Below, piece by piece: positions 15,052-60,730 of a stretch of 64,000 bases of DNA. A model generated the notes under the pieces. That model did no database searches. It was not told where the DNA came from and saw only the letters and a program-made list of their open reading frames with translations. Source of the DNA: PVC group bacterium (GTDB lineage Bacteria > Omnitrophota > Gorgyraeia > B26-G9); NCBI GenBank assembly GCA_024231215.1, contig JAAEQR010000003.1:22660-86659 (forward strand), read 5' to 3'. Each line of letters begins with the position of its first letter. Position 1 is the stretch's first letter. The translations under genes and the position numbers were made by a program.

Positions 15052-15175
15052 AATCCCCTCTAATATAAAGTATATCATATTTTTGGAAAAACAGCAGGGA
15101 TTGGTATAGTTTTGTTATAATATATCTGAGAACATAAAGCATTGTAGTATATGAAGTTGCAATAAAACATAAAAG

Positions 15176-29568: not shown

Positions 29569-29892
29569 TTCATGTATCGCATTTTTTCTGGAAAGTTTTT
29601 AGCCAATTCAATGCTTCTTCTTCTGCAGTAAACATTAAATCAGACCAATATATCAAGATGTAACTTAGTATATACTGATGATTGTATCATAAGATATAAT
29701 TGGGTGCAATATTATTTCATATAGAGTTAAATATTAATATAATCTTAAAAAATCTTATAAACTTAGTAAAATTGAATTGGGCGTTACGATCAACAAAAGA
29801 AAGGTTGAAAGTTTTCAGTAAATGAAGTAACATATAAAAATAACTCTTATTTGTTCTTAGTTGCCGGGAAAAAAGGAAAATCTGACGATATA

Positions 29893-41800: not shown

Positions 41801-42191
41801 GGCAGGTAAGATGAGCAGGAAGAAGGAAGTACCTTTTTCTATCTGTGGTAAGCTTGCGTCTACCCCTGAATTCATTCTATTTTCACTATATGCAAAGTCG
41901 TTGTCGCTTTTTGATATCCGACTAAGCGTTGGTAAAGATTCTATAGCGTACGTCAAAGAATTTATTCGCCATGTCGATACTAGACGCATTAAAGATATCT
42001 TTAATGATTATCGAAAAGGTTATGATCAGAATAAATTTGATGAGAAAATAGCAGATGAAATAGAAAACATAGTGCTTTCTATGGGAGAATTAGCCAAGCC
42101 TTTTCTACAGGGACAAGTTAAGATGTCGTTACAGAAGAAAAGGGGGCAGGCATCGAAGGCTCCTGTGTTAGTGCATGAGTATGCAATATAA
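38862..42191 (+). CDS. Tagged-family member 3: 1109-aa protein whose C-terminal half resembles PEP-utilising enzymes (swivel His-domain plus TIM barrel, PtsI/PPDK-like)
   Basis: GAKHYAVMAGDHGFPVI (compare GGxTSHAAIxARxxGIPAV), GLYRTEYEY (compare GLFRTEFL), LFPMVS, VGAMFETPQAF, FVSWGSNDW (compare SIGTNDL) and FSICGKLAS (compare CGEMAG). Leader ILIQAVLF, FLSPVLEIN box, C-terminus LVHEYAI. Confidence 0.8.
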   Translation: MGINKKYLYLRIIACILIQAVLFGNSGLIGVVRAENFLSPVLEINNKLVKTSFETPQVKSRRFVHNLDDLSKLSRRKRDDLEINVLKRIRNINLKGFNFLSREEQENFIFVDLDFAEYVLKTIFTDKIKEDMSQKNVSYEIITRIIVDMFILLNKVLEQQEGQDNTYIACTNYTFSKDRKGQTYVLTVNFEKKGVEAKISKFIAEEIDAEMPNIVSVSGPIEKITGNKSIDVSFYGVSKNNKVLTPSEITRAVKKLPPNAENIDISELRIAHKRLLNLARDRYEKQDILKEITPAIERKIKTGIVAEGTSSFTPITEKAFVGKIICAEVVEKEKKPTYPLVSYYSETLRKDLRLLDNAINTAMYKYEGIDINTVHHFLQDAFAFARHDSRETRKAPTAQFLSHLMDERKAVRVRIRKELLEIITYTPMLNKDNEPREISEIMEEELAELAELQDYEDNMYIWGELNRLNQEDLLWDNIMSQANEIVGNIYQYIEGVDPEPKNEKEQMALDAIENARKAVPTDTQIGSMVDTVLQDLPRQLFAWLRKYDCSLHEAFFRSMQPIVDQLVQAQEHTSQMKGGLSLNLHTELCTFVDTVLLELGEYESRHVVVHNDSEKEPFILYVPGDLGGPEEYLRFRRLYPNMVGIVVKEGAKHYAVMAGDHGFPVINKIDLIEMSEGKLPLELVLKKKTNGIMRISRGGKAFLYINPSLRDTLEAETIIKTAQAIKILCEANIDLEGEDGKLKTYDGVEAPEIMMNLDIAEDAEDLPSRVIRKIGLYRTEYEYERHGELTEEAWYKIFKKIVKDSEGDFIAVRLPDRKVSGEGGDIKNPKAFGKSNLEGLDFLLDERAKGRRISTIILRALMRVYAEDGVVGALFPMVSQERAEGIIDFVEEIKENLIFEQKNKNKREALEEALDSFSVGAMFETPQAFEFKKELMEIFDFVSWGSNDWKMASSGKSRGAQGTTKELISFTPEVVKTALAAGKMSRKKEVPFSICGKLASTPEFILFSLYAKSLSLFDIRLSVGKDSIAYVKEFIRHVDTRRIKDIFNDYRKGYDQNKFDEKIADEIENIVLSMGELAKPFLQGQVKMSLQKKRGQASKAPVLVHEYAI

Positions 42192-44480: not shown

Positions 44481-46349
44481 ATGCTATCCAAACGAATAAT
44501 AAAAGTTGTTGCAGTTGTTATTATCCAGATGTTTTTATTTATGGATTTTGCCTGGGCAGCGGATTGTCTAAGTCCTTCTTTGAATTTTAGCGGAACTCAA
44601 TTTTCCTCTCATTACAATATTATTTCTGAGGCAATTAAGATTTTTGAAGAATTAGAAGGAGCTCAGGAACAATTTGTTATCAAATCAGGTGATAATTATT
44701 TTTACGTTTATAATCCTAATAATGCTTCAAAAACATTATTAACAAATGCAGAAGTTATTATTAATAATGAAGACGTAGCAGTTGCTTTATTGGGTGATTT
44801 TAAATACCAGAAGACAGAAAAGAAGCTAGTAGAGCCGGTGAAAAATGTAAATATTATTACGGATTTATATTCAGTTCAGCAATGGCGTTCAATATTTGAA
44901 ATGATTATTCACGGGGTTGGTCCGAATAAACCAGGATATTCTCGGGACTATATCCCGCATGTCAAACGATGGTTTAGGCTTCTTTTTAAACAGATAACTG
45001 GGGTAGAGCCTCCAGCTGAAGCTGTTTATTTTTTCGAGGCAGTATATGCGGATGTTGTTACTAGCCGGGTTAATCCTATGGTAAAAAAATACAATAAAGA
45101 AGAAGAGCGTTATGGGGTGCGTGAAATAGAATTAACTCAAAAGGCGATAGGTAATTTTGCGGCAACGCCCTACGCATACATGGATGCAGGTGTTAGAGAA
45201 GAGATGTATAAAAAATTAGATGCGGTTTTAGCAGAGATAGTAGAGATAGCTCTAGCTCAAGGAGCGACTGGCGATTGGCCGACAGCATTAAATGCAATAA
45301 TGCACAGCCAGGGAACGGTCACCGGAACTGAATGGATCCAGGACCGATTAGAAAAAGGAATGTGGCCGGATGTATTGCAGACAGATAAAATAATATTAAT
45401 TGGTGGGGTGTTATGGCTCAAATCAATTCTTAGAAGCAGACCTTTAAGTGATCCTTTAAGAGTTCAAAAATTTGGAGGAATGATTGTAAATATTAAAGAC
45501 CCGCAAGATGCAATTGGAAGATTTTTAAGGCTATTGAGCCCTGAATTTGCGGATGCGATATTTGCTGATGGGTATCTTAATGTGGGAAGTTTTTTAAACC
45601 CATTATCACATACAATTGCTTCTCATACTAAGTATTGGAATAGTCGTAGAATCGCTAAAATCAAGGCAATGATGCTTGTATTTAGCGCATTAAGGCAGAA
45701 TCCCGCGTGGTTAACCAAATACGGACGCAAGTCTTTAGATATTAATGCAGCAGAAACTGAATTCAGAAGAGATCTTCTAAAATTACTTAGAAGTGACTTA
45801 TCCTCCTTGCCCCAGCATGATCCGGAACTTATTGGGCCGGGGTATAAATTTGTGTCTAATGATGAGAATGAGGCTACGGGAGGTATCTTTGTTTTAAATG
45901 AAGCGGCTGAAAAAATTGGATTTTATGCGGACAATAAAACAGTTGCTGCAAATAATGATATCATTGAGCCGATCAAAGCAAAAGTTAAATTTACAAAAAA
46001 TCTTACAGCTAAAGTAGAAGAGTTAAATAAAATCACTCCGGATAGAGCAAATAACCAGGGGTATATGATGATTAATTCTTTGAATCAGGAAGCGGCGAAT
46101 CAAATTAGAGACAAAATTAAAGAAATCAGTTTATTTGTAGAACAGTTTCAGGGTGCAGATACACGGGAGCTTGCTGTACGGATTAAGGAAGTGCAGGATT
46201 TAGCTAGACAGAATATGGACATTTCTAAATTAGATGAAATTAAAGTAAAAATGCAGAATTTGCTTAGTACTACTATAAAGTCAATTGAAGTTTGTAAGCC
46301 TGCTTCAGGGCAGAGTTCAATTATTGCTGCAATCAGTATATCAATATAA
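44481..46349 (+). CDS. Tagged-family member 5: 622-aa protein of unknown function
   Basis: Leader VVIIQMFLFMDFAWA, CLSPSLNFS box, C-terminus IAAISISI. I recognised no catalytic motif. Confidence 0.8.
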   Translation: MLSKRIIKVVAVVIIQMFLFMDFAWAADCLSPSLNFSGTQFSSHYNIISEAIKIFEELEGAQEQFVIKSGDNYFYVYNPNNASKTLLTNAEVIINNEDVAVALLGDFKYQKTEKKLVEPVKNVNIITDLYSVQQWRSIFEMIIHGVGPNKPGYSRDYIPHVKRWFRLLFKQITGVEPPAEAVYFFEAVYADVVTSRVNPMVKKYNKEEERYGVREIELTQKAIGNFAATPYAYMDAGVREEMYKKLDAVLAEIVEIALAQGATGDWPTALNAIMHSQGTVTGTEWIQDRLEKGMWPDVLQTDKIILIGGVLWLKSILRSRPLSDPLRVQKFGGMIVNIKDPQDAIGRFLRLLSPEFADAIFADGYLNVGSFLNPLSHTIASHTKYWNSRRIAKIKAMMLVFSALRQNPAWLTKYGRKSLDINAAETEFRRDLLKLLRSDLSSLPQHDPELIGPGYKFVSNDENEATGGIFVLNEAAEKIGFYADNKTVAANNDIIEPIKAKVKFTKNLTAKVEELNKITPDRANNQGYMMINSLNQEAANQIRDKIKEISLFVEQFQGADTRELAVRIKEVQDLARQNMDISKLDEIKVKMQNLLSTTIKSIEVCKPASGQSSIIAAISISI

Positions 46350-46363
46350 AGGAAGGTAAAAAT

Positions 46364-49183
46364 ATGTTATCTAAGAGATTCGTAAAAATTATTTCAATTG
46401 TAATCATTCAGGCATTTTTGGTTTTGGACTTTGCCTGGGCCATGGGGCCTGATGCCAGATTTTTTGATGCCGGAGCACAGGAATATCTTGCTCCGACATT
46501 AACTATTAACAGCGCGCCGATTCAGGCAACTTTGCAAAATATGATGGCGCGTGAGAAATCACTTCAGGATGTTATTGATTTTGGCAAAGAAGAAAAAACA
46601 GAATTCTTTGCCGGGTTATCTAAAGAAGAAAAAATAAAACAGCTTGAACAATGGATGGCTGCGTCTTTTGAAGGCGGCGGACCCAAAGGCGCTTATGAAG
46701 CAGGGATTGGACAACTGTTTATGGAGTCATGGATGCATTTGAAAAACCAGGGCAAGGAAGATGTTACCGGGTTTGATGTTATCGGGGGTAACTCCGCAGG
46801 TGCAATTAATGCTTTGTTTTTTAGTTTAGCAATAATGTATGATCCGACTTTTGTTAAATATAATGAAATTACCTGGGTAAAACATTTAAATTTAAAGAAT
46901 TTATTAGAACCGGGCCAAAATTATAATCCTAAGAACGCAGTTTTTTCCAGCCAAATAATAGATCGCGCAATAAAAGCCATAGAGCAAAAGTTGGAAGAGT
47001 GTAAGAATAACGACAAGACTCTTTCTTATGCTCCGGAAGAGATAAGAGTTGTTTTTTCAGTAACCAATCTTAGTGGAACTCCTTATTGGGATGAAGTGAA
47101 GAATCTTCTGGATGGTAAAAAAGGTATTAGATATGACCACCAGGGGAAAATCCATTTTACAATTAAAAAGAAAGACCGCTACAGTCCTGAGACTATGGAA
47201 ATGCTTACATTGATGATGAAAGTTGCGGTAGCTTCAGCATCAATTCCAATTGTTTTTGAAGCGCGAAAAATAGCTCAGTCAGTTAGAGCTTATCCTGGCA
47301 GCATTTTGGCAAACATGGCTGTGAAAGCCGGGAAATGGCTTACCGAAAAAATCACATCAATTTTTGTCGATGGAATGCTTGTAGACAACAAGGCGATAAA
47401 AACAGTAGCAAAGCTAGCTAGGAAGAAGGATATTGAAGAGGGAATGCTGAACAGCAATTTGCGCAATAGATTGCAAGTGGCTATTTCACCGAATGTAATA
47501 GATGATACCGAAGGAGAAAGATTTGATAAACAGGATATCCCTTCTGTTGCTATGAAGAGCCTTAGTGCGGTTATGGCGCAAGTTCTTTATCAGAATGAAA
47601 AGATTGATGAGATAAATAAGAAAAACACGCTGATTACGCATTTCATACAGGATATACAGAAACAGGCTGAAAAAGTAAAGCGTTATAAATGGAGTAAGAA
47701 GCGACTAAAGCAGGAGATTGATGAGTTATTATTCGGATCAAGTTACAGTCTTATTAAACGCAAAAGTGAAAATAGAGCCAAAAGACACATTCTAAAGGAA
47801 ACAGGAAAAGAAGTGGAATATGAAGCGACCAAGGATGAAGTAGCCTGGTATATAAAAAGAAATAAAGAACGTGTAATCAGGCAGCGTTTGCTGGCCAACG
47901 GAATTATTACCGAAGCACAGCTTAACAGTCAGGATGAACGGGATAAATTGTTTATTGATTACTTGGCACTTTTTACGTTTGTCGAGGAATGCGGTCGTGA
48001 TTTAAGAGGCAGGGAAGAAGTATACGTACATCAGATTGCGCCAACTAAGCATCCTTTGGCATCTGATCTCTTGCTCGGGTTTTTGAGTGAGGATGTCAGG
48101 CAGGCTGATTTTAATCAGGGATATGAAGATGCACGATTGGCATTGGAGGCGCTTTTAGGTGTGGATCTTTCTGGTTTGCGCCGGCAGGAATCGGTTCAGC
48201 AGACGGAAGGTTATCAGTTTGCTTATAGCAATGTTTCTTTGACAGAAAGAAAAGAAATAGTAAATATGCTTATTGCCAGAGCAAAACTTATTGTTAAAAC
48301 TATCTTAAGCAAAAAACATTCGTCCTTGGTGGGTAAAATATTCGCTCAGCCGGGGATTGTGGGAAGAAATATTCTGCTTAGTGGTGCTTTAATATTTGTT
48401 AAAAAAATGCTGGCAAAACAATTTCATATTCCTCAGGATGAAAAAAATGCTAAAGCAAGAAGAGTCGAGTCTTTAAAGCTAAATATGCGTAATAATATTT
48501 TATATAAAGAGAATGAACTTTATAATTTAAAGGAAACAAAAGCAAGGCTGGAGCAAATAGCTAATTCTAAGAAGCCGGTTGCAGTTATTGTAGGTAGTGA
48601 TTTAGAAACTTCATTTGAGGCAATGTCTGTGATTAGTAGGTATAGAAAAGATATTACTATTCTTAAAGCACCACATGGAGAGACCCCTGGACAAGCTTTG
48701 CGAACAAGTTATACAAAAGGAAAAGAGACTATTGATTTACATAAATCTACCCAATATAACAGAGATGTTATTTTAAAAACTTTTATTTTAAATTCAGGAA
48801 TTTTAATTAGTACTAAAAAGATGCTGGATAAATATTCTCGAATTGGAGGTAATTACAAAATTACAGAATTGGGGGAAAAAGCAGAAGCCGAGTGGGCAAC
48901 AATTATTAATAATAAAGAACATATAATTATATTGGGAGAGACCCCGGAACAATTAAAACCGATATTAAAGGATAAGGATGTATTAGAAATAGAGACAGCA
49001 AAGCATAGGAAGGCTTTGAATAGAAAAATCCCCTTTGTCGGCAGGAATGTTTGGGAGAAATATTTTGGCAAAGATAAGCAAGCTAAAACACGTAATTTAC
49101 TGGACCTTCGTTATGTACCTAGTTTTGGTGGATATAAACAACCATTGATGATGCATAATAATCTGGTGAATATAGCAATTTAA
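46364..49183 (+). CDS. Tagged-family member 6: 939-aa patatin-like phospholipase with a long C-terminal extension
   Basis: FEGGGPKGAYEAG (oxyanion GGGxxG), GGNSAGA (GxSxG) and VDGMLVDN (catalytic Asp region). Leader VIIQAFLVLDFAWA, YLAPTLTIN box, C-terminus NLVNIAI. Confidence 0.85.
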   Translation: MLSKRFVKIISIVIIQAFLVLDFAWAMGPDARFFDAGAQEYLAPTLTINSAPIQATLQNMMAREKSLQDVIDFGKEEKTEFFAGLSKEEKIKQLEQWMAASFEGGGPKGAYEAGIGQLFMESWMHLKNQGKEDVTGFDVIGGNSAGAINALFFSLAIMYDPTFVKYNEITWVKHLNLKNLLEPGQNYNPKNAVFSSQIIDRAIKAIEQKLEECKNNDKTLSYAPEEIRVVFSVTNLSGTPYWDEVKNLLDGKKGIRYDHQGKIHFTIKKKDRYSPETMEMLTLMMKVAVASASIPIVFEARKIAQSVRAYPGSILANMAVKAGKWLTEKITSIFVDGMLVDNKAIKTVAKLARKKDIEEGMLNSNLRNRLQVAISPNVIDDTEGERFDKQDIPSVAMKSLSAVMAQVLYQNEKIDEINKKNTLITHFIQDIQKQAEKVKRYKWSKKRLKQEIDELLFGSSYSLIKRKSENRAKRHILKETGKEVEYEATKDEVAWYIKRNKERVIRQRLLANGIITEAQLNSQDERDKLFIDYLALFTFVEECGRDLRGREEVYVHQIAPTKHPLASDLLLGFLSEDVRQADFNQGYEDARLALEALLGVDLSGLRRQESVQQTEGYQFAYSNVSLTERKEIVNMLIARAKLIVKTILSKKHSSLVGKIFAQPGIVGRNILLSGALIFVKKMLAKQFHIPQDEKNAKARRVESLKLNMRNNILYKENELYNLKETKARLEQIANSKKPVAVIVGSDLETSFEAMSVISRYRKDITILKAPHGETPGQALRTSYTKGKETIDLHKSTQYNRDVILKTFILNSGILISTKKMLDKYSRIGGNYKITELGEKAEAEWATIINNKEHIIILGETPEQLKPILKDKDVLEIETAKHRKALNRKIPFVGRNVWEKYFGKDKQAKTRNLLDLRYVPSFGGYKQPLMMHNNLVNIAI

Positions 49184-49217: not shown

Positions 49218-49255
49218 GCCCCCCTTCCGGGAATATCCGGGAGGGGGTTTTTGTT
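49218..49255 (+). terminator. Strong intrinsic terminator
   Basis: GC-rich stem ccccccttccgg / ccgggaggggg (about 11 bp) followed by tttttgtttt. Confidence 0.9.
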
Positions 49256-49380: not shown

Positions 49381-49409
49381 TTGAAAAAAGCCAAATCATA
49401 TGGTATACT
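49381..49409 (+). promoter_or_regulatory. Cluster promoter P5 (TTGAAA-17 nt-TATACT)
   Basis: TTGAAA at 49381-49386 and ATATGGTATACTTTACC, with the hexamer at 49404-49409. Confidence 0.65.
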
Positions 49410-49475
49410 TTACCGATTTTATTTATCATTTTTTAGCAACTTTTTAAAGTGTATTTAAGAAAGAAGGAGTTTTTT

Positions 49476-52400
49476 ATGTTATCGACGAAAAATAATCAAA
49501 AAATTGGTTTCAAATTAATATCTTTTGTTCTTATCCAGGCTTTTCTTTTAATGAATGTTTCCGGTGCCTTTGCCGGACTGGCTGTGGCTCAAAACAGCGT
49601 GGAAAATCAAACTACACTCGCTCCGAATATTGCGATCAGCCATAATGCTTTGCAAGGCATGTTTATGGTTGAACAAGCTCCGGTGATCAAAGTGCCGGAA
49701 AGTTTAATCGACGTAGATTATTTTATGAAGACAGTACGTCGGGCATACTTGACTCGCAAGGTTAATGCTGTGAAAAAAGCTGAAGATTTAGAAACTGCGA
49801 TGCTGGGGATCGTGGAAAAGTATACATCTGCGGATACTGATAAAGTGCGTAGTGCGATCATTACTAAAGTTCGCAAGGCTGGTAAAGAACTTCCTATATA
49901 TAAAGAAGTGGAAAAAATGCTGACTAAAAAGTCTCTGCATATGGAAATGATAAAACATGTGCTTAAGAAAAAACAACTTGGTGAAAAGGTATTTACGGCT
50001 AATAGTGCTGGTGAGTTGTTGAAAACTTTTGGCGTGGATGAAGAGACGCAGCAGCAGGCAATAAATGATGCTAAGCAGACAATAGGTCTTGGTGTAAAAC
50101 TTACCCGTAAAGAACTCAAAAACATTTTAACCCAGATTCCAAGTAAAGAAAAAATTCCCTCTTTGGCTATAGAATATCTGGATAATAAATACAAAATTAA
50201 AGAATGGTGGGGGGTGCAGCTATTTAAAGGAATATGGATGTGTAAGATCGGACAAATGTCTTGGCCGGTGTTAGGGGTGAAAATAGTTCGCTTTGTAAAA
50301 GAGAATGATTTGCTTTCTAAATTCTGGGGAAAGTTTGTGGCTTGGTGGGAAGGCTCATTTAAAAGTTTTATTATTAACTATATAAAAGGAATAAAATTCC
50401 AGTATTCCCAGGGCTCAGGGTATAATTTCGAAACAGCGCGTAACTGGCTTGATACTTTACTTCGTCTTTATATAGATAAATCTGATCGTGAGGATGCTGA
50501 GATTGACCAGGCGCAGACAAGAGAATATATATTTGACCAAATGCGAAAAAAAGGGATTGTTCCGGAAGAGTATAAGCTTTTATTTGCGTCAATGGTTTCA
50601 AAACAGCCTGTGCCTGAAAACATCGAAGGCTTTGCTAAGACAGCAAGTGAAAAGAGATTAACAAATGAAGATATAAAAAAATTGACAATTATGCTTGATA
50701 AGGTAATTGACCGGGCAGAAATCGCGATTTCTCAATACGAATTATCAGGAAATTCCCGGACAGATGAAAAAGCCTGGGATATGCTGGATAAGCGTTTTGA
50801 AGTATATTTAAGCGTGGTTGAGAAACCGTTAATTACGGTGTTTGATATGTGTTCTAAATATCGCATTATCAGTGATATGGTATTTATGATGTTTAAAAAT
50901 TCAGGACTGCTGCTAGAGAATGACAAATATTTATTTAGCCGGATAGGCGATAAAAATATATTTGAAGATGTAAAAATACAGATCAGAGAAAGAATAGAGG
51001 ATAACCGGAAAATATTATCCGGGAAATTAGACAAAAACGATTACACCATAACTACAGCTGGCAACAACCTTAAAATAATTCTCCAGTATATTCTAATGAT
51101 AAAGCAGACAGCTTTTGCAGATGGAAAAGTTGATTTATATGAAGCTAAAAACTGGTTTGGTAAGTTATTTGATTTTTATAAGCAAAGTACTCCTGAATCT
51201 CGCAGGGATATTATTAAAAGACTGAAACGCGCGGAATTGATCCTCAGCGATAAAGATGAAGCATTGTTTAGTGAGTTGCTGAAATCAAAGCCGGGAGTTA
51301 CTGAAAAAATTATTATTGCCATGACTAAAAATGTAAAGACAAAGAGAGCCGGGGAGTCGAAAAGACAGAAATTGATAAAACAGATTCTAAGCGATAAATA
51401 TAGATATGTCTCCAAAATAAACGCACAGGTATCTGATGAGACTGTATTAAAATCAGTAGATAAAAAAGAATTAATCGGAGTTATCGATAGGTTTGTGCGG
51501 GCGCAAAACCTGATTATGGAAGCGGATAAGGTATACCTGGCCGCGGCAACCCCAGAAGAATATGCAGTCGCAGGGGAGATATTAGAAGATGTCCTAAGTA
51601 TTTATAAACTGACGAAATATCGTATGGAACGAAATATTATTTTTAAAATGCTGATAGAGGCAAGATTAGTAACGCGTGAACATAAAGGATTATTTGATTT
51701 GCTATATGCAGGTTCTGCAACCGCAGTCGAAGATATTAAAGATGCAGTTACGGCTCAAGTACAACAGCGCAAAAAAGATTTGGAAGAGTCTTTTATTGAA
51801 ATTCGTGAAGCTGTGAATAAGTCAGTAGAGCTTTATGAGAAAGCTGCGGAGTTATCTAAGGAGCAGATTGATGAATTTCTTAATGAAAAAATGGCTAAAG
51901 TTATAAGTGATTTTACCCAGGAGTATTCGTTTGAACAGGTATTAGAGAGTATCCGAAGGATGGAGACAGGAGAAAAAATAGATTTCTTAGTTGATTTATA
52001 TGAAGACGATAAAGCTAGGCCTGATCAAAAGAAAAGAATATTTGAGATATTAAAAGAAGTGGGATTGCTGGATGGTTTTTGGGTAAATGTTCACAATTTT
52101 TTCAGTAAGCTTGGGCTTACTAAGCGTTTTGCTGCAATTAAGGAACGTTTAAAAGAAACGATCCTGGGTAAAGTTTACTCTGTGCTAGGTGAAAAGAAGC
52201 TGAAGCTCGGGGGGCAGGCTATAGTTTATGCGAAGGCAGCTCAGGCTTTGGATCCGGCGTTAAAGATATATGTCAAAGAACCTTTAGCCAGGCAATTTAT
52301 AACTGAGAGACTGGAAGCGGCAAATTTAATTGATAATTCGATTCAGATGAAGGCAATGTTCTGGTTCTTAGCCGGAGCTAAGCCGTTTGAACCAACTAAT

Positions 52401-55019
52401 ATTATTATCCGGTTAATAAATATTCCGATAAGTGCAATCGGATTACTTATACAGTATCCGGCAAAATTGTTGATTAAATTCATGGTAAAAATAGTCATCA
52501 CTCATCGTCAGATACAAGAATCAGCACGGATTGAGCAGCTGATTATTGCCGCAAGGAAAAATATCGAAGAGGCTGTTAGTTTGTATTCTAAGGGTGATAA
52601 ACCAACCGCGGAAGTAAAAATAGATGCAGCTTTAGATACTTTTGGAGATGCAAAACAGACGCAGGCTAAAATTTTGCAGGCTTTTAAAGATAATGGTTTT
52701 CTTACGGAAGATGACACAGAGTTGAATAGCTTGTTTGATCAGTTGGCACAAAGCACAGATTATGCGCAAAAAGAATCTGTGAAGGCGGAGATTGTACAAA
52801 AGATAAGCATGAATCAGCCGGATCCTCTTCCGAGCGTAGACGTAATACTTGAAACAATAATTCCGGCGGCAGAGCAAGCATATATTGATAAGAATTGGGC
52901 TAGTTTGGAAGCTGCCCTGGATGTCTTTTTGAATTTTTATGAAAAGGTAAAAGAGCCTAGGGAGGAAGAGATTGTATTAAATGGTTTTGCGGGTGCTTTT
53001 CGTGAACATGATATATGGAGCGATACCCTGGATGTATTATTTGAAAAATTAAGAAGTCCGGGGCAGAATTATGAGCAGATTAGAAATGATATCAAAAGTT
53101 ACATTCAGAAAAAAATGAGTGGCACAACTCCGGAAGTGCCTGATTTAGATCAGGCACTTACTGCAATAGCAGAAGCGACGGGGTTATATGCGGATAAAAA
53201 ATATGAAGAAGCCGAAGCTGAATTACTTAAAGTATTGCAGTTTTATGCATTAAATACAGTAAGCGAACGAGAGCGTACAATTGTCATGGATAATATTAAG
53301 CCTTTGTTGCCTACAGAGGATAAGCAGTTAGAAGCGTTTTTTAGATCAATTGCCGATCAAAATACTCCGGATGAAGATAAACAAAGTTTGATAGCTGCGA
53401 TTATAGAAAAAATAACTATTTATCAGAAGTCCCAAGTTGATCCGACTCCGGAAATGCCGGATTTGAATAAAATACAGAGGGATGTGAATAAGGTCGTTAA
53501 TTTATATAAAGAAAAGCAAGATAATACTGCGGAAGAAATATTAGGATCGATACTGAATCTGGCAATAACTCACAAAGATAATGCAGAGGTTATAACTCCA
53601 ATATCCAATATGCTGGTGACTGCGGGATTATGGAATGATGCGGATAAGCAGTTGTTTTCGGAATTATTGCAGAAAAATGACTTGCAGGGGATAAAAGATA
53701 AGATTTCTGCAATCGTATTAAAACATAGAAATGAAATAAGATCAGCAACCGAATATATTAATACTGTAAAAGTTTTTTGTTACGAAAGAAAGTTTAATTG
53801 GGAAGTTGCGTCACAGTCGATTGATTCAGCCTTAACTCTTTATGAGGAAAATGCATGGGTGAGAGATTCAATAGCAGTAGCTTTAACCATGGAAAAAGCA
53901 TTGCTGGATAATGTTACCCGAAATGAATTAATTGGGAAGTTTAATAATGCGATAAAAAATAATGAAAATACAACCGGGATAAAGGGTGAGATAAAAGCGG
54001 CTATAAAAACTTATGCAACAGCGCAGTTAGAGAAAGTAGAGAAGGTAAAGCAAGTTGCGGCGAAAGATAAAGTTAGCAGTTTGACAATAATTATGCGTAA
54101 CAGCTATTACGCGAATGATCTGGATCTTCCGATACAGGCACGGGATGATTTGTTAGCAACATATGTTAAGGTTATGCCATTGCGGAGCTTAATAAAAGAA
54201 CAAATTATAGAAGCTGATTTAATGACAGAAGAGGATGTGAATAGATTATTCGGAGCTTTGGATAGGGTTTCTTCTGATGATGAAATAAAGGATGCACTAG
54301 ACGCTATCGAGAATAATATGTTAACCCATGTGTTGGAGCAACGGCTTGATAAGGCGCAGACCACTATTATACTTATAGCTGATCGTTATGAGGTGGCGGT
54401 AAAAGATGAAGACTATAAGAAAGCAGAGGATCTTTTGAATTATCCTTTGGCTGTGGCGTTAGATTGTAATGAGCATGCAGAGGCTATCTTGACGGAACTG
54501 GAAAAACAGAAATTAGTAACTACTAATGAAGTTAAAGGACACTTCCGGGACTATGTGAATTCCAGGGATGCCGGGTATCTCGATCTTTTAAAACGTAAAA
54601 TAACCGAAGCACAAAAAGCTCTTAAACAGATAGAAGAGCCGAAACAGCCGGATGATGGACAGCAGAATGATATTATTCAGTTGAAAATGAAAGTGGTAAA
54701 CTTTATTGCTGAGGCATGTGGTAATTATTATGTAACTGAAGATTTTGACGCGGCAGGAAAATCTCTTAATGAAATATTGAATGCATATATGGAACATCCT
54801 GAAATACGTGATTTTATCACTGAAATCATGGAGAAGAATGACTTGATGAACGATACTATTAAGGGGTTATTTAAAGACTTAGGAGTCTTGTCCGATAATA
54901 ATATTTCCGAACAACAGATTGATAGTATAAGAGGAAAGATACAGGATGCTGTAAAAGCAAATGTAAAAGCAGTAAAAAGAAATAAAAAGATGCTGGAATT
55001 AATTGGCATGGCGATTTAA
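49476..55019 (+). CDS. Tagged-family member 7: giant (about 1847 aa) alpha-helical repeat protein
   Basis: I prefer the ATG at 49476 (AAGGAG Shine-Dalgarno sequence 7 nt upstream) over the GTG at 49449. Leader VLIQAFLLMNVSGAFA, TLAPNIAIS box, C-terminus ELIGMAI. There are at least 12 degenerate repeats of about 90-110 aa. Confidence 0.85.
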   Translation: MLSTKNNQKIGFKLISFVLIQAFLLMNVSGAFAGLAVAQNSVENQTTLAPNIAISHNALQGMFMVEQAPVIKVPESLIDVDYFMKTVRRAYLTRKVNAVKKAEDLETAMLGIVEKYTSADTDKVRSAIITKVRKAGKELPIYKEVEKMLTKKSLHMEMIKHVLKKKQLGEKVFTANSAGELLKTFGVDEETQQQAINDAKQTIGLGVKLTRKELKNILTQIPSKEKIPSLAIEYLDNKYKIKEWWGVQLFKGIWMCKIGQMSWPVLGVKIVRFVKENDLLSKFWGKFVAWWEGSFKSFIINYIKGIKFQYSQGSGYNFETARNWLDTLLRLYIDKSDREDAEIDQAQTREYIFDQMRKKGIVPEEYKLLFASMVSKQPVPENIEGFAKTASEKRLTNEDIKKLTIMLDKVIDRAEIAISQYELSGNSRTDEKAWDMLDKRFEVYLSVVEKPLITVFDMCSKYRIISDMVFMMFKNSGLLLENDKYLFSRIGDKNIFEDVKIQIRERIEDNRKILSGKLDKNDYTITTAGNNLKIILQYILMIKQTAFADGKVDLYEAKNWFGKLFDFYKQSTPESRRDIIKRLKRAELILSDKDEALFSELLKSKPGVTEKIIIAMTKNVKTKRAGESKRQKLIKQILSDKYRYVSKINAQVSDETVLKSVDKKELIGVIDRFVRAQNLIMEADKVYLAAATPEEYAVAGEILEDVLSIYKLTKYRMERNIIFKMLIEARLVTREHKGLFDLLYAGSATAVEDIKDAVTAQVQQRKKDLEESFIEIREAVNKSVELYEKAAELSKEQIDEFLNEKMAKVISDFTQEYSFEQVLESIRRMETGEKIDFLVDLYEDDKARPDQKKRIFEILKEVGLLDGFWVNVHNFFSKLGLTKRFAAIKERLKETILGKVYSVLGEKKLKLGGQAIVYAKAAQALDPALKIYVKEPLARQFITERLEAANLIDNSIQMKAMFWFLAGAKPFEPTNIIIRLINIPISAIGLLIQYPAKLLIKFMVKIVITHRQIQESARIEQLIIAARKNIEEAVSLYSKGDKPTAEVKIDAALDTFGDAKQTQAKILQAFKDNGFLTEDDTELNSLFDQLAQSTDYAQKESVKAEIVQKISMNQPDPLPSVDVILETIIPAAEQAYIDKNWASLEAALDVFLNFYEKVKEPREEEIVLNGFAGAFREHDIWSDTLDVLFEKLRSPGQNYEQIRNDIKSYIQKKMSGTTPEVPDLDQALTAIAEATGLYADKKYEEAEAELLKVLQFYALNTVSERERTIVMDNIKPLLPTEDKQLEAFFRSIADQNTPDEDKQSLIAAIIEKITIYQKSQVDPTPEMPDLNKIQRDVNKVVNLYKEKQDNTAEEILGSILNLAITHKDNAEVITPISNMLVTAGLWNDADKQLFSELLQKNDLQGIKDKISAIVLKHRNEIRSATEYINTVKVFCYERKFNWEVASQSIDSALTLYEENAWVRDSIAVALTMEKALLDNVTRNELIGKFNNAIKNNENTTGIKGEIKAAIKTYATAQLEKVEKVKQVAAKDKVSSLTIIMRNSYYANDLDLPIQARDDLLATYVKVMPLRSLIKEQIIEADLMTEEDVNRLFGALDRVSSDDEIKDALDAIENNMLTHVLEQRLDKAQTTIILIADRYEVAVKDEDYKKAEDLLNYPLAVALDCNEHAEAILTELEKQKLVTTNEVKGHFRDYVNSRDAGYLDLLKRKITEAQKALKQIEEPKQPDDGQQNDIIQLKMKVVNFIAEACGNYYVTEDFDAAGKSLNEILNAYMEHPEIRDFITEIMEKNDLMNDTIKGLFKDLGVLSDNNISEQQIDSIRGKIQDAVKANVKAVKRNKKMLELIGMAI

Positions 55020-55088: not shown

Positions 55089-56639
55089 ATGAAAATAATT
55101 ACAAGTATAATCATACAGATATTTTTATTTACTACCTTGTGCTTTGGCGCGGGAGCGAATAGCTATCTTTCCCCTGAGATATCCATGGCTAGTGAAGGAG
55201 TAAAGGACAGGATATCTCAGGTATCCGAGCAAGATAATACTGCGTCTATTTTTCCTACCTATGATGTGATTAAAGAACTCAAGAAAGAAAATTATATTTC
55301 AGGTAAAATTGGCCAGCATGATTTTGCCGGAACAGTAAGACGACGGAAAGGTTTTTTATTTATCCATAATGTATATAAGCCTCAGAGCAAGAAAGATATC
55401 CGATGCTGGGGCGGTGTTTTATTTAAGGTTCCGTATGAAATAATACCTTCTGAAGACGAGGATAAAGGTGTGTTTTTGAAAATGCGTATAAAAGATGTAT
55501 CTAAAAACGGAAAGTTTTCTCTTACCTTGCAATGGCCGGAATTAAAGAATGATAGTTATGTGCGGCTTGTCTATGATACGGATAAAACAGGGGAGATCAC
55601 TATAAACTTATCTAAACTGGTTAAGGACAGAGGATTGCCGGCTGGGGATCAGTTTTATGTACAGGTATTGCCGGTTGGTCATAATGCTAAAGTAGAAATA
55701 GATGAATTTGTTTTAGAAAATATTCCGGTGCGGCAGGAAGAAAATGCTGTGTATAACCGGCATATATACCCTATATATAAAGAAGGGGAATATCCAATTA
55801 ACTTAACTTCGTATCAGGCGGAACAAATTCGCGTGTTTTTGTCTGCAATTTACTCGATTTCAGAAGAGAGCAAAAGGAAAGATGTTTCCAAAGTAGAAAT
55901 AGGTGGTGAGTTGTTTGATTTGCTTAATCAGATAATGGAAGAGCAGGAGAGTTTATGTCTTTTAATGGAATTGGGATATGAAGAGCCGCTGTTGAAAATA
56001 TTAACAGTATTAAAAAAGAAGTTTTTGCGTATGTCTAACATAGCAGTAAAGGTTGAAAAGCTAAAAATAGAAATGCAGAGTAATTCTCGAATGTTAAGAG
56101 TAAGAAGACTGGAAAAAGAGTGGTCTTATATTAATAATCAGTTCGAAGAAAAAAATGCGCAGTACACTGAGACTTTACGCCAGCATCGGGTATTTGGTTC
56201 ACCTCATCCGGGAAGCTATGATGAGATTATGTCCTTGTTTGAAATAAAGAATCATTTGTTTGGAGAATTGAATCGGACAAAAGATGAGTTATTTCGTAAG
56301 GTGGTTGAATACTATAATCATTGTCGTAACTTTTGTAAATTTAAAAGGACCTTAAAGCAGAAGATGGAAGAGATAAATACCATATTAAACAGCAAAGAGG
56401 AGGCTAATATATATTCGAATCCGGAATTATTAGCAAAAGAATTTAAAAAATATTCGTCTTTGATGGGCTCTCCTTCGAAGGCGAGCCGCCTGACTGCCGA
56501 AGATAAAAAATCTGTTATAAAGATGGTTATGTCTTATATTTCTTCGCAATCCGATAGACGCGAGGAAAATATCACTTCGGTGAAATCAATTAAAGAGATT
56601 TCTCGTCCTGCTTTATCTTTCGTGGAATCAGCAATATAG
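55089..56639 (+). CDS. Tagged-family member 8: 516-aa protein of unknown function
   Basis: Leader SIIIQIFLFTTLCFGAGA, YLSPEISMA box, C-terminus SFVESAI. There is no obvious Shine-Dalgarno sequence. Confidence 0.75.
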   Translation: MKIITSIIIQIFLFTTLCFGAGANSYLSPEISMASEGVKDRISQVSEQDNTASIFPTYDVIKELKKENYISGKIGQHDFAGTVRRRKGFLFIHNVYKPQSKKDIRCWGGVLFKVPYEIIPSEDEDKGVFLKMRIKDVSKNGKFSLTLQWPELKNDSYVRLVYDTDKTGEITINLSKLVKDRGLPAGDQFYVQVLPVGHNAKVEIDEFVLENIPVRQEENAVYNRHIYPIYKEGEYPINLTSYQAEQIRVFLSAIYSISEESKRKDVSKVEIGGELFDLLNQIMEEQESLCLLMELGYEEPLLKILTVLKKKFLRMSNIAVKVEKLKIEMQSNSRMLRVRRLEKEWSYINNQFEEKNAQYTETLRQHRVFGSPHPGSYDEIMSLFEIKNHLFGELNRTKDELFRKVVEYYNHCRNFCKFKRTLKQKMEEINTILNSKEEANIYSNPELLAKEFKKYSSLMGSPSKASRLTAEDKKSVIKMVMSYISSQSDRREENITSVKSIKEISRPALSFVESAI

Positions 56640-56667: not shown

Positions 56668-57936
56668 ATGAGTAGTAGATTTGGAGTAATATTTAAAATC
56701 ATTGTAATAGTACTTGTGCAGGCATTTTTGACGTTAGATCTTGCTTGGGCTGCGCAGGGGAATCTGCGTTCGTTTCAAGCGGATGATACTATTTCTCCTT
56801 ATATCCAGGTCGAAAATATTTCTTTGCAGGCCGGATTTTCTGTTTTATTTACTAAGGTTGCTGTGAAAGATATTGCTCAGATTGAAACTATTGAGAGTAT
56901 AGAGCAAAACACTACTAACTCATCCATCCTATCTCAAATCAGAAATTGGATGGAAAGATTTTTTCTAAAAATCACATTTTCTTTAGGACAGATATTGTTA
57001 GGGTGGACTGGACTTGTTTGGGCGCAGGAGCATATAGAAGAATATAACGGCCCTTATTTTGATAACGTATGGTCGTATTGGTGGTATCGGACATGTAATT
57101 TTTTTACAAATCCAGTTGTTTTTAAGACTGTATTGGTTATCTCAGGTGTAGCAATGGTTTTTTTAGTCGCGAGTTTTGTTGTAGCTAACCTGATGACAAG
57201 TAAAAAAGATAGAAGCAATCTGGGAATGGTGATATTGATTGGTTTGATTGGTTATTTGGTTCTAAGCAGTGATATAGGCAATAAAGTACAAGACTTTTTC
57301 TTTCCCGATGTTATGCCTGATATGAAGACTTCGACACAAAAGAGTATTATGGAGCACAAATTAGGACTCCCTGGAGTAGGCATACAGACAAATGCGGTGC
57401 ATTCGGAAGTAATACAAGAATTCACCTCAAAAGGAAAAACAAGGAAAAATGTAATTATAAACGGAAAGATAGTAGGAGATAATATTCCTCAGAAGAGTTT
57501 TACACTTGATCAGAATGAGATTGTCTTGGCTGTATTGTTCATGCTTGCAGGGATTTTTTTAATTGATCATGCAATAAACAAAAATAAAAGAGGTCAGAAA
57601 ACATTAATAGATATATCTTTTGCTTTCTGGGGCCCGATAATAGAGGAGATAATTGAGATATTGAAAGCGTCATCTCAATCTGCAGGCCAGCTGGTAACGA
57701 TTAATGAATCAGACATAGCTGATTTACCATCAGAGACTGAGACTGTGTTGGATCAGTCAGGGGTGTTTTTCTCGGATAAGAATTCTGCCCAGGGAGAGCT
57801 TCAGCTTTATATGGAACAATTCGGGGCGCTTCTTTATCCTACAAACTGGGATGATTTTCGAAAAGCAGAACAGGTGCATCGTAACCGGCTGAATAATTGT
57901 AGTACATCATATGTTTTGCTGGAACAGGCTGTTTAG
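56668..57936 (+). CDS. Tagged-family member 9: 422-aa polytopic membrane protein
   Basis: Leader VIVLVQAFLTLDLAWA, TISPYIQVE box, about 4 internal hydrophobic helices, C-terminus VLLEQAV. Confidence 0.8.
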   Translation: MSSRFGVIFKIIVIVLVQAFLTLDLAWAAQGNLRSFQADDTISPYIQVENISLQAGFSVLFTKVAVKDIAQIETIESIEQNTTNSSILSQIRNWMERFFLKITFSLGQILLGWTGLVWAQEHIEEYNGPYFDNVWSYWWYRTCNFFTNPVVFKTVLVISGVAMVFLVASFVVANLMTSKKDRSNLGMVILIGLIGYLVLSSDIGNKVQDFFFPDVMPDMKTSTQKSIMEHKLGLPGVGIQTNAVHSEVIQEFTSKGKTRKNVIINGKIVGDNIPQKSFTLDQNEIVLAVLFMLAGIFLIDHAINKNKRGQKTLIDISFAFWGPIIEEIIEILKASSQSAGQLVTINESDIADLPSETETVLDQSGVFFSDKNSAQGELQLYMEQFGALLYPTNWDDFRKAEQVHRNRLNNCSTSYVLLEQAV

Positions 57937-58096: not shown

Positions 58097-60730
58097 GTGA
58101 AAAACGGGGTGCAGGTTTTGTTAGTAAAACATTCTAAAATATTGATTCTTACTAAGCTTTTTGTATTGCTTCTGGTGCAGGCGATGTTGATGACAAATAT
58201 TGTCTGGGCTGGAGGGTGGGAAGTCTTATGTCCAGATACCAGAGAAATGCTTGCTCCTACTCTTCAAATCAATAGCACTGTGATACAGGATAGTCTTGCT
58301 GCATTTAACCCTGAACATCCAACTAATCTGAAATATCTTTCCACAGAAGATGAAGTCTTTAAACTGTCCGAATATGTAAAACAACGTGTTCGGGAACTTG
58401 GATACCAGAATAGGGAGATAGATAAAATATCTAATAATTTGCTTGATCTTTTTCTATCTCAAAAAGATAACGGAGGAAGTGCAAGTTTATTGAAATTAAA
58501 GCAGCAGTTGGCAGTTTTGAAAGAATCAAAAGATAGTTTTCCGGCAGAAAGATTTGAAAATCAGGAGATGCAAATTATAATCCAGGTGATGGATATGATT
58601 ACTGCGGTTATCAAGCCTACTTATGATGAATTTGAGGGAATGTTTTTAGAAGATGTATTGAAAAATAAAAAGGCGCAGGGACTAGGCTATACGCAGTTGT
58701 TTTGTATTTTAGCCGGAGCCATCGGCTTGGAAGCATTTCCCGCATCGACAATGTATAATGTGGAAAATCTGGATAAGAAGTTTAATATGTTGAATTATGT
58801 CCGACTTATCACAGGAAAATTTGTTCGGGTCGATCTGATTAATACTCGATTACTGATAAAGGGGCCTTTTCTTTTAACGGAGGAATATTATATTAGAGAC
58901 AATTACTTTATCCCTTTGGAAAGTTCTGCAGATAAATCTTTGTACTCGTGTATTCGTATAGAGTCTTTTTCTAAACTACCAGCGTATATTTGGGATGTCA
59001 AAGGAGCTTTGGCCTATAGGAAGTTTAGCAAAGAAAAATATAAAGATGAGGAGAGTGTTTTAAGAAAGTTGGAACTTGCTAAAATAATCAAGATTTTTCT
59101 AAGAGCTAAAGCAATAGACCATGATGATTTATTAGTGCATTTACACTTAGCTAATATTTATGCTTTGACTGGAATTTATCAAAAGTCGGTTGAATACATA
59201 AGCACGGCAATTCAATTGACCAAACATATTTTTCCCCGAAAATTTGTGGCTGATTTATATCAATTTCGTGGGGAACTATATTTAGAAATGAAACGGAATC
59301 AAGAGGCAAGAAAAGACTTTGTTCAGGCGATTGAGTTAAATCCATTGTTAGAAAAGGAGATTTTAGAATGCTGGAAGGCTGAAACAAAGAAGCCATTTGC
59401 TTCGGCATTGAATAAAAACAGTAAGCCGGTAGTTAATATTGATGATTTAGTGCCGGCAATTGAACTGCCTGGCGCAAAGGGGAGGATTCTAAGCCACAAA
59501 GACAATGTACTATTGTTAGCAAAAGGTAAGATCCCAAAGGTAGGTTCCGGAAAATTTCGGGATAATGCCCTCAAACTTAAAAGGGCAAGCAGTTTTTTAA
59601 GAGAATATTATAAAAAAGAAGATAAATTTGGTGCTAAAGCTGAAATGCTTAAGAAAATCAGTATATCCGGAGTAGATATGAAAACCAATTTATTATATTA
59701 CGATCCTGTGTATAATTTATGTGTGCCGGCTCATATAGTCAGAAGAGCCCAACTGATTGAATTCTCCATGAAGTTTCTTGAACAGTGTGATGTAAAAACA
59801 GATAATGGTATTCGTCTCTTAGCTAAATATATTGACCAGGCAATTAAATTTTTTGTTAAATATGAACAACTTAAAAAAGAGGTCAGGAATAATCCGACAG
59901 ATTCAGATGCTATGTATGAAGCTTTGTTGCCCTTGACTAGGCTATATGAGAACAGGAAGCAGGGAAATATTTTTTCCAAAAAGGCGATGAGAAAAGTGCT
60001 GGCCGGCCTAATAGAAAAAGATAATATTATCGAACAGAAATTGAGCAAGAAAGTTGAGACGGCTGAACGAAAAGTAAAGAAAATGATAATGAATTTGGAA
60101 AAACAAATGCCGAACTTGCTGGGGTATCAAATCCGGGATAAGATTTTAAAAATTACTCCGTTATGTGAAAATATTGGCGAGGACCTGGACCAGGCTGGGA
60201 AGTTTGATGAAGCAAGAAAATATTATTTGGAGGTTGTACGACTGCTTAAATTATCCGAGTTGGATTTGGGTGCCTGGCCGGTAATGTGCCAGAAGAGAAT
60301 TACTTACTTTTTACTGGAACATGGGTTGTTTATTGAACTTATTGAATTGCTTGGTATATTTTGGGATCCGGATGAATTTATCCGGGACATTTCTCAGTTG
60401 CATGAAACAGAATCCGGATATTTGAAAAATATAGAGGGGAAAGAGAGAGCAGAATATTTGTTAGATCAACAGGGGCTGTGGAAAAATATTATAGAAGGAG
60501 ATCATTCTATTTTATGGAATGAGCTTTATTATCAAATGTCGGTACGGAAATCTCAAGCTAGTTTTGCTTTCGCTTTGGAAATTGAGTATCTTCAGAAAAA
60601 GGCAGAAGGATTATATGAAAAGTTATGCCGAAAATTAAGAGAATTGGATGCTCAGCATGAAAGAGGTAACGCGTGGAGAGAGAACGAGTTAGATTTATCG
60701 AATGATATCTTAGTGGAACAGGGAGTATGA
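58097..60730 (+). CDS. Tagged-family member 10: 877-aa protein with TPR repeats and a possible transglutaminase-core-like (SirB1-like) region
   Basis: Leader LLLVQAMLMTNIVWA, MLAPTLQIN box, C-terminus ILVEQGV. GLGYTQLFCILAGAIGLEA..LNYVRL..VRVDL is followed by TPR-like LHLANIYALTGIYQKSVEYISTAIQL..RKDFVQAIELNP. The true start may be the TTG at 58118. Confidence 0.75.
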   Translation: MKNGVQVLLVKHSKILILTKLFVLLLVQAMLMTNIVWAGGWEVLCPDTREMLAPTLQINSTVIQDSLAAFNPEHPTNLKYLSTEDEVFKLSEYVKQRVRELGYQNREIDKISNNLLDLFLSQKDNGGSASLLKLKQQLAVLKESKDSFPAERFENQEMQIIIQVMDMITAVIKPTYDEFEGMFLEDVLKNKKAQGLGYTQLFCILAGAIGLEAFPASTMYNVENLDKKFNMLNYVRLITGKFVRVDLINTRLLIKGPFLLTEEYYIRDNYFIPLESSADKSLYSCIRIESFSKLPAYIWDVKGALAYRKFSKEKYKDEESVLRKLELAKIIKIFLRAKAIDHDDLLVHLHLANIYALTGIYQKSVEYISTAIQLTKHIFPRKFVADLYQFRGELYLEMKRNQEARKDFVQAIELNPLLEKEILECWKAETKKPFASALNKNSKPVVNIDDLVPAIELPGAKGRILSHKDNVLLLAKGKIPKVGSGKFRDNALKLKRASSFLREYYKKEDKFGAKAEMLKKISISGVDMKTNLLYYDPVYNLCVPAHIVRRAQLIEFSMKFLEQCDVKTDNGIRLLAKYIDQAIKFFVKYEQLKKEVRNNPTDSDAMYEALLPLTRLYENRKQGNIFSKKAMRKVLAGLIEKDNIIEQKLSKKVETAERKVKKMIMNLEKQMPNLLGYQIRDKILKITPLCENIGEDLDQAGKFDEARKYYLEVVRLLKLSELDLGAWPVMCQKRITYFLLEHGLFIELIELLGIFWDPDEFIRDISQLHETESGYLKNIEGKERAEYLLDQQGLWKNIIEGDHSILWNELYYQMSVRKSQASFAFALEIEYLQKKAEGLYEKLCRKLRELDAQHERGNAWRENELDLSNDILVEQGV

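Follow-up and report, generated by a model that had tools for sequence, protein, structure and literature searches.

What kind of protein does the largest gene of this 64,000-nucleotide (nt) stretch of DNA encode, and is the repeat that can be read in it by eye genuine? The stretch (hereafter the window) comes from contig JAAEQR010000003.1 of a PVC group bacterium, and its largest open reading frame (ORF) spans 49449-55019 on the forward strand, opening with GTG. An initial annotation made from the letters alone described an 1,847-residue ORF and proposed a tagged protein made of many degenerate helical repeats of about 100 residues. The 1,847-residue product, translated from ATG 49476, is the likely one, and we confirmed the proposed architecture: profile tests and an AlphaFold2 model agree on it. 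The product has a mass of about 210 kDa and is identical to MCP4648508.1, which is encoded on a 104-kb contig and annotated “MAG: hypothetical protein GY853_00315 [PVC group bacterium]”.

49476..55019, +, coding sequence of the 1,847-residue repeat protein, stop codon included (NCBI MCP4648508.1, locus tag GY853_00315)

An ABC-F gene at 1157-2773 of the window encodes a product with 85% identity to the ABC-F protein of an Omnitrophota single-cell genome and 71-79% identity to counterparts in dozens of Omnitrophota metagenome-assembled genomes. Because this gene is closest to Omnitrophota versions, we place the source organism in that phylum; the closest genome found is the Omnitrophota single-cell genome AM-311-C11 (JBHPDT01).

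Gapped profiles detect a tandem array of 14 units

All 14 sequence strings quoted in the initial annotation were found where they had been reported. The seven motif examples had been chosen by eye and were therefore checked by leave-one-out. When a profile hidden Markov model was built from six of the seven motif copies, the missing copy was recovered in six of seven cases with 7.2-17.1 bits, against a background of 2.4-5.9 bits (the best of 200 whole-protein shuffles); the seventh copy, at residue 1246, was marginal at 3.7 bits. The 51-column motif profile also placed two unseeded sites above all shuffles. When the seven seeds were extended to a profile of ~105 columns, six extra copies were found in the first pass with 7.4-19.8 bits. 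This profile reached at most 4.7 bits on shuffles and at most 6.3 bits on 239,667 residues translated from natural ORFs (those of this window and of 80 other Omnitrophota loci), and the reversed repeat protein scored 0.2 bits.

Iteration of the profile converged on 14 units covering residues 291-1830 (nt 50346-54965) nearly end to end, of which 13 are full length and one lacks its first helix. The protein thus contains significant in-register copies of one unit, the generic criterion for a tandem repeat. The array that had been placed at 50421-54939 is real, but it begins about 75 nt earlier and finishes about 25 nt later, and the count of “at least 12” becomes 14. The first motif, given as A-x2-[LI]-x3-L-x2-Y, does recur, but its corrected form is A-x3-[LIF]-[DGN]-x2-L-x2-Y.

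The repeat is detectable with gapped profiles only. Ungapped autocorrelation gave weak peaks at offsets of ~103, ~203 and ~403 residues (z ≈ 3.4, close to the 95th percentile of the maxima seen in shuffles); since this is borderline, the case for the repeat rests on the gapped profile tests. A blastp self-comparison was uninformative, with no off-diagonal alignment for either the real or the shuffled protein. The low identity between units (~19%), the autocorrelation that barely exceeds the shuffles and the blastp self-comparison without off-diagonal hits are what one would expect if the repeat were an illusion created by the amphipathic helical composition of a Lys/Glu/Leu/Ile-rich protein. 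We give this explanation next to no credence. Such a composition does not account for the leave-one-out recovery, for six unseeded units that beat all shuffles as well as 240,000 residues of natural ORFs, including helical proteins of the same genome, or for the collapse of the score in the reversed sequence. In addition, the units tile end to end and in register with an invariant Phe, and an alignment of the 14 paralogous units suffices for a confident structure model (see below). A chance origin of the repeat pattern is excluded.

The units are anciently diverged and are predicted to fold as five-helix modules

Profile iteration delimited the following units, preceded by a region that does not contain the repeat.

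49665..50345, +, non-repeat N-terminal region, residues 64-290, Lys/Glu-rich with a Trp/Phe-rich amphipathic end; no family match
50346..50669, +, repeat unit 1, residues 291-398
50670..51020, +, repeat unit 2, residues 399-515; helix 2 is followed by an insertion
51060..51359, +, repeat unit 3, residues 529-628
51477..51785, +, repeat unit 4, residues 668-770; a 39-residue linker lies before it
51786..52187, +, repeat unit 5, residues 771-904, with an insertion of ~40 residues between helices 1 and 2
52218..52436, +, repeat unit 6, residues 915-987, without helix 1 and with a hydrophobic last helix
52518..52817, +, repeat unit 7, residues 1015-1114
52818..53129, +, repeat unit 8, residues 1115-1218; five helices in the AlphaFold2 model
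53133..53429, +, repeat unit 9, residues 1220-1318; in the two-unit model
53451..53738, +, repeat unit 10, residues 1326-1421; in the two-unit model
53739..54029, +, repeat unit 11, residues 1422-1518
54033..54335, +, repeat unit 12, residues 1520-1620
54336..54626, +, repeat unit 13, residues 1621-1717
54660..54965, +, repeat unit 14, residues 1729-1830

The unit consensus reads I..A..(L)Y - 7 - A...LD..L..Y - ~7 - R..I - ~8 - L[LVW] - ~6 - K.LF..L - ~9 - IK..I...I. The Phe of helix 4 is invariant across the units, and Tyr is conserved at the ends of helices 1 and 2. Nearly all conserved columns are hydrophobic, the others being a partly conserved Asp, Arg (helix 3) and two Lys (helices 4 and 5).

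Pairwise identity between units averages 18.7% (range, 11-28%), and adjacent units are no more similar to each other than distant ones, with no higher-order pattern. At the DNA level, no repeat of ~300 nt was detected in the gene, and we therefore rejected a recent DNA-level amplification. Because identity is low, neighbours are no closer and a DNA-level repeat is not seen, the units are old duplications that diverged anciently. Most repeats of long Omnitrophota proteins are likewise old and diverged at the DNA level (10.64898/2026.06.07.730766). No other ORF of the window contains a copy of the repeat.

AlphaFold2 modelled unit 8, from an alignment that held only the 14 paralogous units, with a mean predicted local distance difference test score (pLDDT) of 93.1 and a predicted template modelling score (pTM) of 0.83. 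The model has five helices of 11-17 residues each (unit residues 7-23, 27-43, 47-62, 69-79 and 85-101) and no strands. The conserved hydrophobic residues sit within these predicted helices at i, i+3/4, i+7 spacing, so that conservation marks the core of the module and not an active site. We found no sub-repeat inside the unit: hhalign gave helices 1-2 against helices 3-5 a probability of 0.4%. Helices in the single- and two-unit models are 8-22 residues long, with loops between them, and form compact five-helix modules, on which modelled grounds we rejected a coiled-coil fibre. Of the “scaffold or fibre” suggested by the initial annotation, the fibre in this sense is thus disfavoured, while a modular scaffold or rod would be compatible with the models.

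A two-unit model (units 9-10), built from seven rows of non-overlapping unit pairs, kept both modules (pLDDT 84) with a pTM of 0.51 and a linker pLDDT below 50, leaving the inter-module orientation undefined. The junctions differ in composition. Seven contain two to four Pro or Gly residues, namely, the Pro-rich junctions 7/8, 8/9, 9/10 and 13/14 and the Gly-containing or long-linker junctions 2/3, 3/4 and 5/6. Five (1/2, 4/5, 10/11, 11/12 and 12/13) lack a helix breaker and are potentially continuous helices, and one (6/7) consists of a hydrophobic segment. We read the array, from these models and junctions, as a string of modules that would have both flexible and stiff joints; one continuous superhelix could also be compatible with the available models.

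No known repeat family or PDB fold accounts for the unit

Searches of the whole repeat protein against Pfam, NCBIfam and PHROGs returned nothing significant, and no TPR or Sel1 Pfam match was present at E≤0.1. We then lowered the threshold to E≤10 and scanned the 14 units singly against Pfam, which gave no match to TPR, Sel1, HEAT, ARM, ankyrin, PPR, spectrin, FIVAR or GA and no family matched by more than one unit. The same tool scored the true TPR proteins of the window at E values of 1e-14 to 1e-30. PDB sequence searches with the whole protein and with the unit profile were empty or insignificant, and Foldseek comparisons of the one- and two-unit models with the PDB gave generic helical matches only, none with E below 0.1. 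The initial annotation had named the absence of a significant periodicity and a confident assignment to a known class as the outcomes that would count against it; profiles find the periodicity, and neither Pfam nor Foldseek gives a confident class.

A search of 1.84 billion representative proteins with the unit profile recovered the protein itself and four weak TPR-like/PPR matches (E values of 1e-6 to 7e-4). These cover profile positions ~12-58 over several stretches and were judged to be motif-level matches. Similarly, hhalign aligned the unit with the TPR-based 120-residue repeat of one of these matches over helices 1-2 only (73% probability, 36 columns). The module thus appears to consist of a TPR-like hairpin (helices 1-2) followed by three helices without a recognisable counterpart. 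The view that the repeat is not TPR, HEAT, ankyrin or Sel1 holds, in that no unit reaches those Pfam models; as to TPR, family membership is absent as claimed, but helices 1-2 are TPR-like in sequence. One of the profile matches is an unrelated 537-residue protein with four repeats of ~120 residues, each opening with a TPR-like hairpin that resembles helices 1-2. Long repeat units with a TPR-like start may have arisen more than once.

TPR and Sel1 repeats are 34-44 residues long and form one helix-turn-helix hairpin; HEAT and Armadillo units have 40-47 residues and two or three helices that build a continuous superhelix; and ankyrin units have 33 residues, with a beta-hairpin loop plus two helices. 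A cryptic array of 34-residue TPRs was rejected, given a period of ~100 residues with no sub-repeat. HEAT/Armadillo membership was likewise rejected, as we found neither a profile match nor a superhelix unit of two or three helices, and so was ankyrin membership, given the lack of a Pfam match and an all-helical model.

Searches for relatives of the repeat protein found none among about 15 billion predicted proteins. Comparison of the full protein with 5.8 billion clusters returned only itself, no relative was present in JGI metagenome contigs, and exact-sequence contig look-ups gave no match. Two neighbouring genes behaved similarly: searches with the patatin neighbour yielded no relative, either among GTDB genomes or in the protein database, and a 1,421-residue tagged neighbour has no match in JGI contigs.

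Eleven unrelated proteins share a leader, an N-terminal motif and a C-terminal tail

The repeat protein starts and ends with short sequences that recur in neighbouring genes and is interrupted by one hydrophobic segment.

49476..49574, +, Sec-type leader, residues 1-33, with three Lys, the hydrophobic core LISFVLIQAFLLMNV and an A-F-A|G site (cleavage predicted by the -3/-1 rule); shared N-terminal tag with a conserved core Gln
49617..49664, +, residues 48-63, LAPNIAISHNALQGMF, with the L[SA]PxLxI motif common to 11 ORFs of the window (sequence comparison)
52353..52514, +, hydrophobic segment MFWFLAGAKPFEPTNIIIRLINIPISAIGLLIQYPAKLLIKFMVKIVITH, residues 960-1013, between units 6 and 7 (two maxima, 1.8 and 1.6, in 19-residue Kyte-Doolittle averages)
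54966..55016, +, C-terminal tail KAVKRNKKMLELIGMAI, whose last residues, …LIGMAI-COOH, are the shared C-terminal tag
15252-16244, 33021-34271, 34458-38723, 38862-42191, 42203-44296, 44481-46349, 46364-49183, 49476-55019, 55089-56639, 56668-57936 and 58097-60730, all +, the 11 ORFs with the shared tags

These 11 ORFs share a leader core, IIQAFL..D..WA, followed 5-25 residues later by L[SA]PxLxI[NS], and a C-terminal end of the LVE[MYSQ]A[IV]-COOH type, with the variants LVEMAI, VEYAI, VESAI and LEQAV; the repeat protein ends in …LELIGMAI. With a profile of the N-terminal tag, exactly 11 ORFs of the window scored 53-85 bits, and nothing else exceeded 6.8 bits. The C-terminal tail was present in all 11 N-tagged ORFs and in none of the 22 other long ORFs (chance probability, 5e-9). 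Beyond the first ~60-100 residues, the 11 proteins share nothing and are otherwise unrelated: their bodies include patatin, peptidyl-arginine-deiminase-like, PEP-utilising and DHH domains and TPR repeats, and several have no recognisable domain.

Three of the tagged ORFs (33021-34271, 38862-42191 and 42203-44296) carry normally cytoplasmic domains behind export leaders (PEP-utilizers_C, DHH phosphoesterase and Porphyromonas-type arginine-deiminase-like). They echo the “metabolic” domains that have been reported in exported giant proteins of Omnitrophota (10.1101/2023.11.21.568195).

No Pfam or NCBIfam model covers the tags, and nine of the tagged proteins gave no NCBIfam or Pfam match to known sorting domains (PEP-CTERM, LPXTG, GlyGly-CTERM or the C-terminal domain of the type IX secretion system [T9SS CTD]). 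Nor are the tags mentioned in two papers on giant proteins of Omnitrophota (10.64898/2026.06.07.730766, 10.1101/2023.11.21.568195). To judge from their recurrence on unrelated proteins, the tags look like an undescribed dual sorting signal. The sole external trace of the tag family is a 77-residue N-terminal fragment encoded on a 622-bp contig (ENA ERZ23498480). This fragment is close to the start of the 1,421-residue tagged protein at 34458 and scored 74 bits against the tag profile, which shows that another metagenome contains a related organism.

The leader of the repeat protein has a 19-residue window hydrophobicity of 1.97 (Kyte-Doolittle). The segment at residues 960-1013 is a possible membrane hairpin or anchor, to judge from its hydropathy, and it divides the protein by charge: residues 34-987 have a net charge of +21, and the eight units at residues 1015-1830 have a net charge of −48.

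Expression signals and neighbourhood of the gene

Three putative expression signals were read upstream of the coding sequence.

49220..49247, +, terminator-like hairpin with a 12-bp stem (9 G-C pairs) and a T-run, 3' of the upstream patatin gene (intrinsic-terminator pattern)
49381..49409, +, promoter-like TTGAAA-17-TATACT with an extended -10 TG (consensus match only)
49464..49469, +, Shine-Dalgarno sequence AAGGAG, six bases before ATG 49476 (read from sequence)

ATG 49476 is the likely start of the repeat-protein gene because of the AAGGAG placed six bases upstream. The hairpin would close the patatin gene, and the repeat-protein gene therefore appears to open its own transcription unit.

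The window has a G+C content of 37%, its GC skew is positive throughout (+0.13 to +0.32), and no tRNA genes were found in it. All long ORFs lie on the plus strand except one (14470-15078, minus strand), which encodes a dual-specificity/tyrosine phosphatase. Two genes immediately precede the main run of tagged genes: a sigma-54 activator that seems to be N-terminally short (29851-30852, plus strand) and a 490-residue outer-membrane beta-barrel protein (31353-32825, plus strand; TraF_2 with an E value of 1e-31, and weakly PorP/SprF). The barrel is a candidate partner for the tagged proteins. Further upstream, 25925-28153 (plus strand) encodes a PlpD-like protein that combines patatin, POTRA and Omp85 barrel domains, the second patatin phospholipase of the window, which is untagged.

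Proposed function and alternative explanations

The repeat protein contains no catalytic domain. Conservation in the unit is almost wholly hydrophobic, which suggests that selection keeps the fold rather than a catalytic site. We lean, tentatively, toward an exported, non-enzymatic, modular alpha-helical scaffold or tether, a multivalent binding platform or spacer that shares the route of its tagged neighbours. According to this proposal, passage through the cytoplasmic membrane would depend on the Sec-type leader, the segment between units 6 and 7 may serve as a membrane tether, and LSPxLxI together with the LVExAI tail would direct the protein to the envelope or surface site that the ten co-tagged proteins also reach. 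Mixed junction types would make the array partly flexible and partly stiff, and at its destination the protein would act as a multivalent protein-binding scaffold or spacer.

Several points weigh against the proposed scaffold. The conserved Gln is atypical of a leader core, and the leader might be an uncleaved anchor. The hydrophobic segment holds an Arg and a Lys and is only marginally transmembrane-like. No receptor or machinery is known for the tags, so that a common destination is deduced from their co-occurrence, and the low pTM of the two-unit model possibly reflects the shallow seven-row alignment and not real flexibility. Finally, all evidence on function is indirect: the searches found no homologue.

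If the 14 units instead formed one superhelix with a peptide-binding groove, the protein would be a highly divergent TPR-type solenoid and a remote member of the TPR clan. The resemblance of helices 1-2 to TPR-like repeats, the fact that the sole non-self profile matches are TPR-like/PPR, the hhalign result (73% over 36 columns) and the five junctions without helix breakers all fit such a solenoid. We consider it unlikely, as no unit reaches Pfam TPR, Sel1, HEAT or ARM even at E=10, no 34-residue sub-periodicity is present (helices 1-2 align with helices 3-5 at 0.4% probability), the helices of a unit number five and are thus not paired off in hairpins, and a Pro-rich linker with a pTM of 0.51 separates units 9 and 10. 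A secreted effector that works in or on the cell of a host or prey, alongside the co-tagged patatin phospholipase and further enzymes, seems to us quite unlikely, even though published descriptions of Omnitrophota portray them as dependent on hosts or predatory and link their large exported proteins to attack (10.1101/2023.11.21.568195), the cluster holds effector-type enzymes behind signal peptides (patatin, PAD-like and DHH), and its members are all lineage-specific orphans, as is common for fast-evolving effectors. No secretion-system genes lie next to the repeat-protein gene, the only candidate being the outer-membrane beta-barrel about 17 kb upstream; the mid-protein hydrophobic segment is easier to reconcile with anchoring than with translocation; and no similarity to known effectors emerged from Pfam, NCBIfam or PDB sequence searches.

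We regard as improbable a membrane-spanning topology in which an uncleaved signal anchor and a single span at residues 974-1008 place the acidic eight C-terminal units on the opposite side from units 1-6. It would account for the two hydrophobic windows (Kyte-Doolittle means of 1.6-2.0) and for the marked charge asymmetry (+21 against −48), and about 85% of long Omnitrophota proteins are predicted to have transmembrane helices (10.64898/2026.06.07.730766). However, the C-terminal tag is shared with leader-only proteins, which argues that both ends reach the same compartment, and the mid-segment is broken by Tyr-Pro and carries Arg and Lys, so that a hairpin or a buried interface fits equally well. 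The most far-reaching model, to which we give very little credence, is drawn by analogy with the cellulosome: the 14 modules would dock the terminal tags of the co-encoded enzymes in an envelope-anchored multienzyme attack complex, assembled by a hitherto undescribed dual-signal sorting system of Omnitrophota that pairs an N-terminal motif with a C-terminal tail. PEX5 and Hop TPR domains clamp C-terminal peptides, and a candidate docking mode would have the TPR-like hairpins bind free LVExAI-COOH tails in a PEX5/Hop-like manner. The clustering of the 11 tagged proteins, the tag on the scaffold itself and the few basic residues kept by the modules are compatible with tag docking.

Significance and comparison with known systems

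Tandem alpha-helical repeat proteins are familiar, and Omnitrophota as a rule possess large exported repeat proteins; the mere existence of this one is therefore unsurprising. What is new is a five-helix unit of ~100 residues that lies outside Pfam, NCBIfam, PDB sequence and PDB fold matches. The units, a self-contained “dark” repeat family, give a confident predicted fold when aligned only with one another and could be added to domain libraries. We consider it a new orphan repeat family of moderate novelty within the known class of helical tandem repeats. The setting is also new and matters more, as the repeat protein is the largest of 11 unrelated exported proteins with a common N-terminal motif and C-terminal tail, and these shared tags are a more unusual feature than the repeat. 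If they define a sorting route in these host-dependent nanobacteria, the scaffold-like repeat protein would be the obvious candidate organiser of the others.

As in LPXTG, PEP-CTERM, GlyGly-CTERM, MYXO-CTERM and T9SS CTD proteins, a short conserved end signal is found here on unrelated exported proteins that bear leaders. Unlike in these systems, the tail comprises only ~6 residues (LVExAI-COOH) with no transmembrane helix, basic tail or beta-sandwich of ~80 residues after it, and it is always paired with LSPxLxI just past the leader.

With TPR proteins (Pfam clan CL0020), the repeat shares the TPR-like pattern I..A..LY....Y..A...L..L..Y of helices 1-2. The unit is otherwise different, with ~100 residues and five helices against 34 residues and two, no 34-residue sub-period, several units set apart via Pro-rich linkers, and no Pfam TPR or Sel1 match. 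Spectrin repeats (PF00435) are about 106 residues long and have three long helices of ~30 residues. They resemble our array in their period (~100-106 residues), in forming all-helical bundles in long tandem arrays and in the possibility of continuous-helix junctions, of which five without a helix breaker occur here. In contrast, our units have five short helices of 11-17 residues, with no Pfam spectrin match and no sequence similarity.

Within the same phylum, “tandem-repeat scaffolds” with signal peptides, transmembrane segments and old, diverged repeats are a described class of long Omnitrophota proteins (10.64898/2026.06.07.730766). Our protein is like them in its phylum, in its signal peptide and hydrophobic segment, and in its old, diverged repeats, whereas theirs are known Pfam repeats (TSP3, NHL, WD40, HEAT and TPR) in much larger proteins and ours is an undescribed repeat in a protein of 1,847 residues. 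In the giant staphylococcal surface proteins Embp and Ebh, the F/FG-repeats (FIVAR/GA) build an elongated rod and serve as modules for multivalent binding (PMC7587433). Each Embp unit consists of two interconnected triple-helix bundles of the FIVAR and GA families, neither of which was matched here; anchoring, phylum and envelope type also differ. Neither Embp/Ebh nor spectrin shares sequence or helix count with the repeat protein. Nevertheless, Embp and Ebh are bacterial exported giant proteins with tens of all-helical units of ~100-170 residues, and by architectural analogy the closest bacterial counterpart of our array would be the F/FG-repeat rod of these staphylococcal adhesins (PMC7587433).

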